A stretch of 64,000 nt of DNA, taken from a virus. Below the pieces are notes generated by a model. It had not been told where the DNA came from. It was given only the letters and a program-made list of their open reading frames with translations, and made no database searches. The position numbers and the translations under genes were made by a program. The stretch lies in IMG/VR virus record IMGVR_UViG_3300008267_000022, positions 19,704 through 83,703 of that record. The stretch is one strand, 5' to 3'. Below are positions 8,721 to 9,051 of the stretch, one piece after another; the stretch's first letter is position 1, and each line of letters opens with the position of its first letter.

Positions 8721-8768
8721 AAAAAACCCCTAGTAGTTTTCCAAGCGTCCTTGGCACTTGCTAGGGGG
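8721..8768 (-). terminator. intrinsic terminator with nested internal hairpin
   Basis: CCCCTAG...CTAGGGG + T-run on the minus strand; inner CCAAG/CTTGG stem. Confidence 0.6.
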
Positions 8769-8789
8769 TGATAATGGTTATATGGTTGA

Positions 8790-9040
8790 GTAAGTATGTC
8801 TGGCCGGACAGGTATTACAGCAATCCAATTTCCCAATATCGAAAAGACCATCCAAGTGAGCAGATCTAACGGGATGCCCGATGGTACTGGGCCTATGGTT
8901 ATCTCACCACAGGGGGGTATTCTTGAGCAACAGTATCACTCAAGGGTTCCAACATTCACATGTTGGTGGGGTAAAAGACCTACCCTGGTACGCTCGATCG
9001 TGGTCACCACAGTCCAGAAGCGTGGTAGGTACTGTTTGCT
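8790..9040 (-). ncRNA. candidate ~250-nt structured ncRNA of unknown family
   Basis: GC-rich island with consecutive hairpins, GNRA loop, G-U wobbles that only work on the minus strand; late-type motif upstream and terminator downstream. Confidence 0.55.
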
Positions 9041-9042
9041 TT

Positions 9043-9051
9043 TATAAATAT
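9043..9051 (-). promoter_or_regulatory. putative late promoter ATATTTATA
   Basis: Same 9-mer precedes virion-type and lysis genes elsewhere in the window. Confidence 0.5.

Follow-up and report, generated by a model that had tools for sequence, protein, structure and literature searches.

A modular RNA of uncultured freshwater phages with units resembling the antitoxin RNAs of AbiF

Here, we analysed a structured RNA gene in a 64,000-nucleotide stretch of viral DNA (hereafter the window) and found that two of its units, which we call modules A and E, are very probably homologous to the leader RNAs located upstream of abiF genes in Bacteroidota, as judged from covariance models built exclusively from host sequences. 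On balance, we favour the interpretation that the phage RNA is an orphan antitoxin mimic, which would keep the AbiF protein of the host inhibited and thereby block a suicide defence. The link to AbiF antitoxin RNAs is new relative to the original prediction, which had described a stand-alone structured RNA and gave no function for it.

Locus, relatives and fold of the RNA

The window derives from an IMG/VR viral contig of 83.7 kb, which is ~52% complete and carries a T4-type family B DNA polymerase (best isolated-phage match at 31% identity). On the minus strand, positions 10320-8716 form a GC-rich region in an AT-rich genome that is nearly free of protein-coding sequence and harbours a tRNA-Leu, two tRNA-Met, several aberrant tRNA-like elements and one small ORF. 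The structured RNA (9033-8716, minus strand) is the final element at the 3' end of this tRNA cluster, and the gene downstream of it is a 138-aa membrane/coiled-coil ORF without a PHROG match. The GC-rich island noted in the original prediction is real, with a GC content of 0.46-0.50 over positions 8700-9100 vs 0.22-0.33 in the flanking genes, and the element indeed begins just after an A/T box and ends in its own terminator (Table 1); its length had been put at ~250 nt and turned out to be ~315 nt.

Several other elements of the cluster were observed along the way. The small ORF (65 aa; 9926-10123, minus strand, within 9893-10182) sits between the tRNA-Leu and the next tRNA-like element, is full-length in four related contigs at 69-91% amino-acid identity without frame breaks and is covered, with a single mismatch, by contigs of 250-295 nt assembled from RNA libraries of four studies; it is probably a real small protein gene. 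Aberrant tRNA-like elements occur on the minus strand at three sites (9244-9306, 9548-9702 and 9770-9913). They comprise a tRNA match of 63 nt in which a normal anticodon arm is missing (35.9 bits), an element of ~155 nt that has an acceptor, a T-arm and an interior of multiple hairpins, and a 144-nt tRNA match with large insertions (28.9 bits). An RNA-library contig of 241 nt, carrying one mismatch, covers positions 9460-9700. In the window, a tRNA-like element is followed by a small conserved hairpin whose tail is U-rich (~9766-9715, minus strand), and in seven related loci this hairpin immediately precedes the A/T box of the RNA; it is another recurrent small module of these tRNA clusters.

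To retrieve relatives of the RNA, we used the metallophosphoesterase gene next to it and two short stretches of its own sequence that are conserved. This yielded about 70 distinct homologues, all of them in contigs of related uncultured freshwater phages: the family profile matched 77 distinct sequences, 69 of which are distinct full elements reaching the terminator, in uncultured viral contigs only. The analyses of covariation and reading frames were performed with 60 homologues, while counts of promoter boxes and of matches to host models refer to 69 loci. A blastn search of isolated phages with 'distant' settings returned nothing similar to the RNA, the neighbouring tRNA-Met alone being matched. 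With the downstream 138-aa ORF as bait we obtained distant loci only, none of them with the RNA, and an upstream 216-aa ORF led to two loci. Across the relatives, the RNA is a multi-hairpin element of 170-420 nt, roughly every second homologue is located away from tRNA clusters, and the genes downstream vary (tRNAs, a membrane protein and others).

Taken together, the comparative data leave practically no doubt that the element is a conserved structured RNA. The minus strand folds with z = -3.6 (none of 100 shuffles was as good), compared to z = -2.1 for the plus strand. Its modules follow the order A-B-C-D-E-F-terminator, with an extra insert of 65-110 nt between C and D in some relatives; E, F and the terminator are constant, while A-D are variably present, in many combinations. 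Across the 60 homologues, pairing holds for 96.4% of cells in the helices of D, E, F and the terminator, and 23 of 35 pairs are changed on both sides, which is the outcome of the covariance check on related phages that had been proposed along with the original prediction. The covariation score of 0.419 for the same set compares with 0.169 for shuffled alignments (0/500 reach the observed value) and ~0.05 when pairing partners are slid.

The signal extends over the individual modules. In module A, the apical helix covaries (both sides changed in 5/8 pairs) and the basal helices are invariant among 21 sequences. Compensatory changes were found in 5/6 pairs each of hairpin B (26 sequences) and hairpin C, whereas hairpin D has seven pairs, five of them changed on both sides, with 97% of cells paired. 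Module E is present in 60/60 aligned homologues and its helices are supported by covariation. Domain F combines a closing helix with both-side changes in 5/8 pairs, an internal loop that is asymmetric and invariant, and an inner hairpin that varies; in the terminator, 10/12 pairs are changed on both sides at 93-100% pairing, and a T-run follows nearly all homologues. G-U pairs are frequent at several positions, for example in 38/60 sequences at one pair of hairpin D, which identifies the minus strand as the RNA strand, as the wobbles in the single sequence had suggested.

Four of the helices drawn from that single sequence are real and kept by compensatory changes; they are the outer helix of module A together with its two inner helices, the tetraloop hairpin B, hairpin C, the true stem of which has 6 bp, and the CCTGTGG-type hairpin D. 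The proposed pairings GCCC/GGGC and CATCC/GGATG (inside E) are not conserved, and covariation backs a 5-bp plus 3-bp pair of helices instead. An 8-mer noted as occurring twice does so because it is the common 3' flank of both AbiFr-like units. A possible likeness of module E to a 23S rRNA region was considered at first and dropped in favour of the host hairpins. No Rfam family, including GOLLD and ROOL, matched positions 8716-9051 at the gathering score or at E values up to 10, in line with the original prediction, which had recognised no RNase P, tmRNA, SRP or group I core motifs in the element.

Beyond the modules themselves, conserved GC-rich hairpin elements lie directly before the RNA in further relatives, namely in the ~110 nt upstream of it in five loci and in the ~45 nt upstream of it in two groups of three. 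This suggests a wider pool of interchangeable RNA modules.

Table 1. Features of the RNA gene and its immediate surroundings, in window coordinates.
Feature	Position	Strand	Remarks
tRNA-Met	9052..9126	-	Last canonical tRNA of the cluster, adjoins the RNA upstream
Promoter-like A/T box	9042..9051	-	Directly after tRNA-Met, ~9 nt before module A
Module A (first AbiFr-like unit)	8973..9033	-	Matched by host-only model R2; apical hairpin variable
Module A, outer helix (7 bp)	9030-9024 / 8984-8978	-	
Module A, inner helix (5 bp)	9023-9019 / 8994-8990	-	
Module A, 3' bulge (5 nt)	8989-8985	-	Invariant
Hairpin B	8949..8966	-	Optional; 7-bp stem, tetraloop; compensatory changes
Hairpin C	8922..8944	-	Optional; 6-bp stem, conserved 11-nt loop; compensatory changes
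Hairpin D	8892..8913	-	Optional; single-stranded C-run ahead (8917-8912); covariation
Module E (second AbiFr-like unit)	8842..8888	-	Invariant core; matched by R2 and R3; covariation
Module E, helix (5 bp)	8885-8881 / 8851-8847	-	Encloses 3-bp helix 8877-8875 / 8862-8860
Module E, loop (12 nt)	8874-8863	-	Near-invariant
Module E, 3' internal loop	8859-8852	-	
Domain F	8770..8840	-	8-bp closing helix 8840-8833 / 8777-8770; covariation
Long terminator hairpin with T-run	8716..8768	-	Stem 8767-8727, T-run 8726-8716

Bacterial counterparts of modules A and E

According to two reviews, AbiF is regarded as the ancestor of Cas13, structure 8VZ6 shows PbAbiF of a Prevotellaceae member in complex with its ncRNA, and this cis-encoded ncRNA, AbiFr, blocks the HEPN active site of PbAbiF (Zilberzwige-Tal et al., Cell 2025, as summarised in PMC12737573 and PMC13064643). 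The part of PbAbiFr that occupies this site is a single-stranded bulge (residues C32 and U38). Published work identifies such leaders as type III RNA antitoxins of AbiF, a HEPN RNase. 8VZ6 is the only solved structure of the AbiF (Abi_2) family. A second leader, RCd22 of Clostridioides difficile, comprises two abiF motifs and a terminator. It reduces transcription of abiF and, by binding directly to the toxin, neutralises AbiF in trans as well as in cis (Saunier et al., PLoS Genet 2025, PMC12373285).

For module E, we scanned one genome per species from 185,579 species with a 17-nt pattern derived from its near-invariant loop. The scan gave 35 matches, 12 of which span the whole hairpin including flanks outside the pattern; these reside in 11 Bacteroidota genomes from several orders, and each of them has a TAnnTTTG box ahead of it and a T-run behind it. 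The other 23 matches, from archaea, Firmicutes, Proteobacteria and others, lie in unrelated, mostly coding-like sequence and look like chance hits. An Abi_2 ORF (PF07751, E 3e-55) was found 60-130 nt downstream of eight of the 12 E-type hairpins, and type I restriction genes (hsdS, hsdR) stand beside the hairpin-Abi_2 pair in at least four loci. At two loci, the Rfam abiF motif lies between the E-type hairpin and the gene or its remnant, at 36 bits vs a gathering score of 37. For module A, the corresponding pattern found a twin in 6 of 401 sampled Bacteroidota genomes, each with a separate terminator and 40-60 nt upstream of an Abi_2 homologue. Both types combined, 14 of 18 leader copies in Bacteroidota are located 40-130 nt upstream of an Abi_2 ORF, and Abi_2 proteins beside both leader types match 8VZ6 chain A over the full length (E 8e-43 and 2e-61).

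Some of the host loci show peculiarities of their own. In two Bacteroidota loci, the hairpin-abiF pair is placed between hsdS and hsdR, and in two shorter ones only one of these genes was seen. In locus L273, identical E-type hairpins with promoter boxes flank a single abiF gene (at ~2309 and 3499), and the contig ends after the second one. Two further loci keep the E-type hairpin, with short ORFs or none before hsdR and no intact Abi_2 ORF; here, the toxin may have decayed while the antitoxin survives.

The relationship between phage and host elements was assessed with covariance models built from host sequences only: R2 from the six A-type leaders and R3 from eleven E-type leaders, both run filter-free over both strands of the whole window. 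R2 matched module A with 53.2 bits (E 4.8e-10) and module E with 38.9 bits (E 1.2e-6), R3 matched module E with 28.9 bits (E 1.3e-6), and neither model found anything else in the whole window at E <0.2. In the 69 phage loci, R2 gave 62 matches, all of them at A or E positions. Since the A-type model also finds module E, both host leader types belong to one family. A further model, R1, found its seed genome alone among 151 sampled Bacteroidota genomes, which indicates that the host element is rare and has no bearing on absence. Two phage loci (L233, 3034-3082; L246, 565-613) also carry extra AbiFr-like units, which score ~30 bits with the host-only model and lie downstream of the main RNA at a distance of ~500 nt.

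In the loops and bulges of A and E, the nucleotides hardly vary and are the same as in the host leaders, and the 5-nt 3' bulge in particular is invariant both in module A and in the A-type leaders, which points to a common binding partner. Two departures from the host form were observed: in most phage copies of module A, the 12-nt apical loop of the host leader is replaced by a longer hairpin, and in module E the 3' internal loop is longer. Either change could alter binding. The Rfam abiF motif itself (RF03085) had no match at E values up to 10 in the window region or in six phage records. The idea that the phage terminator corresponds to this motif was dropped, as RF03085 did not match the terminator hairpin alone either.

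Promoter elements and expression

The 10-nt A/T box ahead of module A occurs in five copies on the minus strand of the window, all of them intergenic (60529, 36073, 33432, 30409 and 9051). Two copies directly follow a terminator-like T-run and three stand 4-15 nt ahead of a start codon, an arrangement that makes the box a candidate for a phage promoter class with very short leaders. A comparable box is located upstream of 36/69 homologues vs 14% of random windows. TAnnTTTG is the consensus of the housekeeping -7 element of Bacteroidota, and in many relatives outside tRNA clusters the box has this form; in these relatives, it follows an upstream terminator. Other relatives have no box, and the RNA directly abuts a tRNA. 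The box would accordingly serve as promoter where it is present, many copies of the RNA likely have a promoter of their own, and co-transcription with the tRNAs is possible. The attribute 'late-type', which had been given to the promoter, is unsupported, given the housekeeping-form boxes in many relatives and the boxless copies abutting tRNAs in others.

With respect to expression, contigs of 171-301 nt from four riverine metatranscriptome runs of four studies lie wholly inside positions 8747-9000. They share 93-94% identity with the window, which means that they come from relatives. The same four runs gave no contigs on the flanking coding sequences (8200-8570 or 10272-10400), uncovered stretches in RNA libraries being weak evidence only, and other RNA-library contigs cover two further parts of the tRNA cluster with a single mismatch. 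As assembled contigs, these data carry no information on strand, ends or abundance and may include DNA carry-over; they are supportive of expression, short of proof. We considered the contig ends (8747 and ~9000) as ends of the RNA and rejected them, as they fall in hairpin loops and are taken as assembly breaks.

Proposed function and comparison with known systems

Why should a phage maintain a dedicated RNA with antitoxin-like units? A gene for an Abi_2 protein was not found in the source contig, in five relatives (one 100% complete with 122.6 kb, another 83% complete) or in 252 loci amounting to 2.1 Mb, so that the RNA is an orphan and not a component of a canonical toxin-antitoxin system. 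Antitoxin-like units without a toxin in everything searched are most economically explained by an RNA decoy that silences the AbiF of the host. We infer binding to AbiF, its neutralisation and the timing of expression from these comparisons. Following this argumentation, minus-strand transcription of the RNA would start at its A/T box or continue out of the tRNA cluster by read-through, and would stop at the intrinsic terminator of the RNA, giving a stable, modular transcript of ~315 nt. Upon infection, host transcription would fall and the labile host antitoxin would decay; the phage would then supply an abundant, nuclease-resistant surrogate, AbiF would stay inhibited and abortive infection would not take place. 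The divergent A-type and E-type units may cover two subfamilies of AbiF, while B, C, D, F and the long terminator would form a stabilising scaffold or possibly act as further decoys.

A broader version of this proposal, which we consider doubtful, takes the RNA as a multivalent modular anti-defence cassette, in which each module (A-F and the alternatives) would be a decoy for a different RNA-binding defence nuclease of the host, and phages would shuffle modules in the same way as they shuffle genes for anti-defence proteins. In this version, AbiF, which processes its own ncRNA, might also cut the phage transcript into separate units.

The RNA might also be a general stable RNA of tRNA clusters with another role, for example as regulatory sRNA, processing scaffold or protein sponge, and its AbiFr-like hairpins merely convenient stable modules. 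Species 1 and 2 RNAs of phage T4 (rnaC, rnaD) are small stable RNAs of this kind, the function of which is unknown. Like them, our RNA is located at the distal (3') end of a same-strand tRNA cluster in a T4-type phage, if a distant one; about half of it (B, C, D, F and the terminator) yielded no host counterpart, and its modules are shuffled among relatives. Unlike them, it has its own terminator and also occurs away from tRNA clusters, in about half of the homologues. The part that is never lost consists of the AbiFr-like module E with F and the terminator, and at the loops and bulges of A and E the nucleotides match those of the host leaders. Sequence similarity to rnaC or rnaD was not found either: the family profile had no match in the T4 tRNA region at E values up to 10 (nhmmer --max). 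We thus regard this explanation as unlikely.

It is improbable that the RNA belongs to a type III toxin-antitoxin or exclusion system of the phage itself, with an AbiF-like toxin encoded elsewhere in its genome. AbiF systems can be phage-borne, as exemplified by a C. difficile prophage (PMC12373285), and with a source contig that is ~52% complete, an abiF gene elsewhere in the source genome is possible. Against this stand the lack of Abi_2 in the source contig, the five relatives and the 2.1 Mb around ~70 copies of the RNA, and the observation that known systems place the RNA directly upstream of the toxin gene whereas the downstream neighbours vary here.

Equally in need of consideration, and decidedly improbable in our view, is a cis-acting attenuator, i.e. 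RNA and terminator controlling read-through into downstream tRNAs or genes in the manner of the host leaders, which attenuate abiF transcription (PMC12373285). The RNA always ends in a strong terminator, and at least seven relatives have a tRNA on the same strand that begins only a few bases after the T-run. However, the downstream genes are unrelated between loci, modules are gained and lost while the terminator remains unchanged, and the RNA-library contigs cover the RNA but not the downstream gene of the window.

Finally, protein coding, be it by an 83-aa or 68-aa ORF on the plus strand or a 57-aa ORF on the minus strand, is excluded as far as comparative sequence data can tell: ORFs of 57-85 codons are present in the window, but no frame is open throughout on either strand in the 60 homologues (the median longest open stretch covers ~0.6 of the length), in agreement with the original view that the minus strand has no credible ORF and with the absence of the plus-strand conservation that would have spoken against an RNA, while the lengths of the homologues show an even spread over mod 3, insertions and deletions comprise entire modules and changes in the helices are compensatory.

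[quoted passage not shown] If the phage RNA is indeed an orphan antitoxin mimic, wild phages would keep a dedicated, conserved gene family for this purpose, and the RNAs would be natural inhibitors of the AbiF/Cas13-like fold. For a large clade of T4-type freshwater phages that are uncultured, the RNA would then also serve as a host marker, pointing to Bacteroidota. It would likewise account for some of the GC-rich RNA islands without assignment that are located within phage tRNA clusters or close to them. Its natural variants are ready to be used for mapping the nucleotides recognised by AbiF.

Among known systems, AbiFr and RCd22 are the closest. Modules A and E very likely are homologues, in sequence and structure, of the Bacteroidota leaders upstream of AbiF; they share a layout in which a U-rich tail or terminator comes after a hairpin that has a conserved loop and a 3' bulge, and, as in RCd22, two units are combined in one transcript. 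In contrast to AbiFr and RCd22, the phage units are embedded in a longer multi-hairpin RNA, an abiF gene was found neither behind the RNA nor elsewhere in the phage sequence searched, most copies of unit A have a longer hairpin in place of the apical loop and the phage RNA does not match RF03085.

The proposed logic resembles that of pseudo-ToxI of phage PhiTE, a mimic of the ToxI antitoxin that allows escape from ToxIN abortive infection and originated through expansion of repeats or capture in escape mutants selected in the laboratory (PMC3475682). In both cases, a phage-borne RNA resembles a type III antitoxin of the host, no toxin gene has been found in the phage and the RNA is proposed to substitute for the decaying host antitoxin. 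However, the present RNA belongs to a fixed gene family that is widely conserved in wild phages and has no tandem repeat array, and its proposed target is the HEPN protein AbiF instead of ToxN. In lactococcal phage sk1, a hairpin at the cos site is reported to protect against AbiF and to be unlike the AbiF ncRNA (Rince et al. 2000; Zilberzwige-Tal et al. 2025, as cited in PMC13064643). Our RNA has in common with it that a phage-encoded hairpin is the presumed or reported inhibitor of AbiF, but differs in being, very probably, a true homologue of the AbiF ncRNA that is encoded by a dedicated gene and not by a packaging site.
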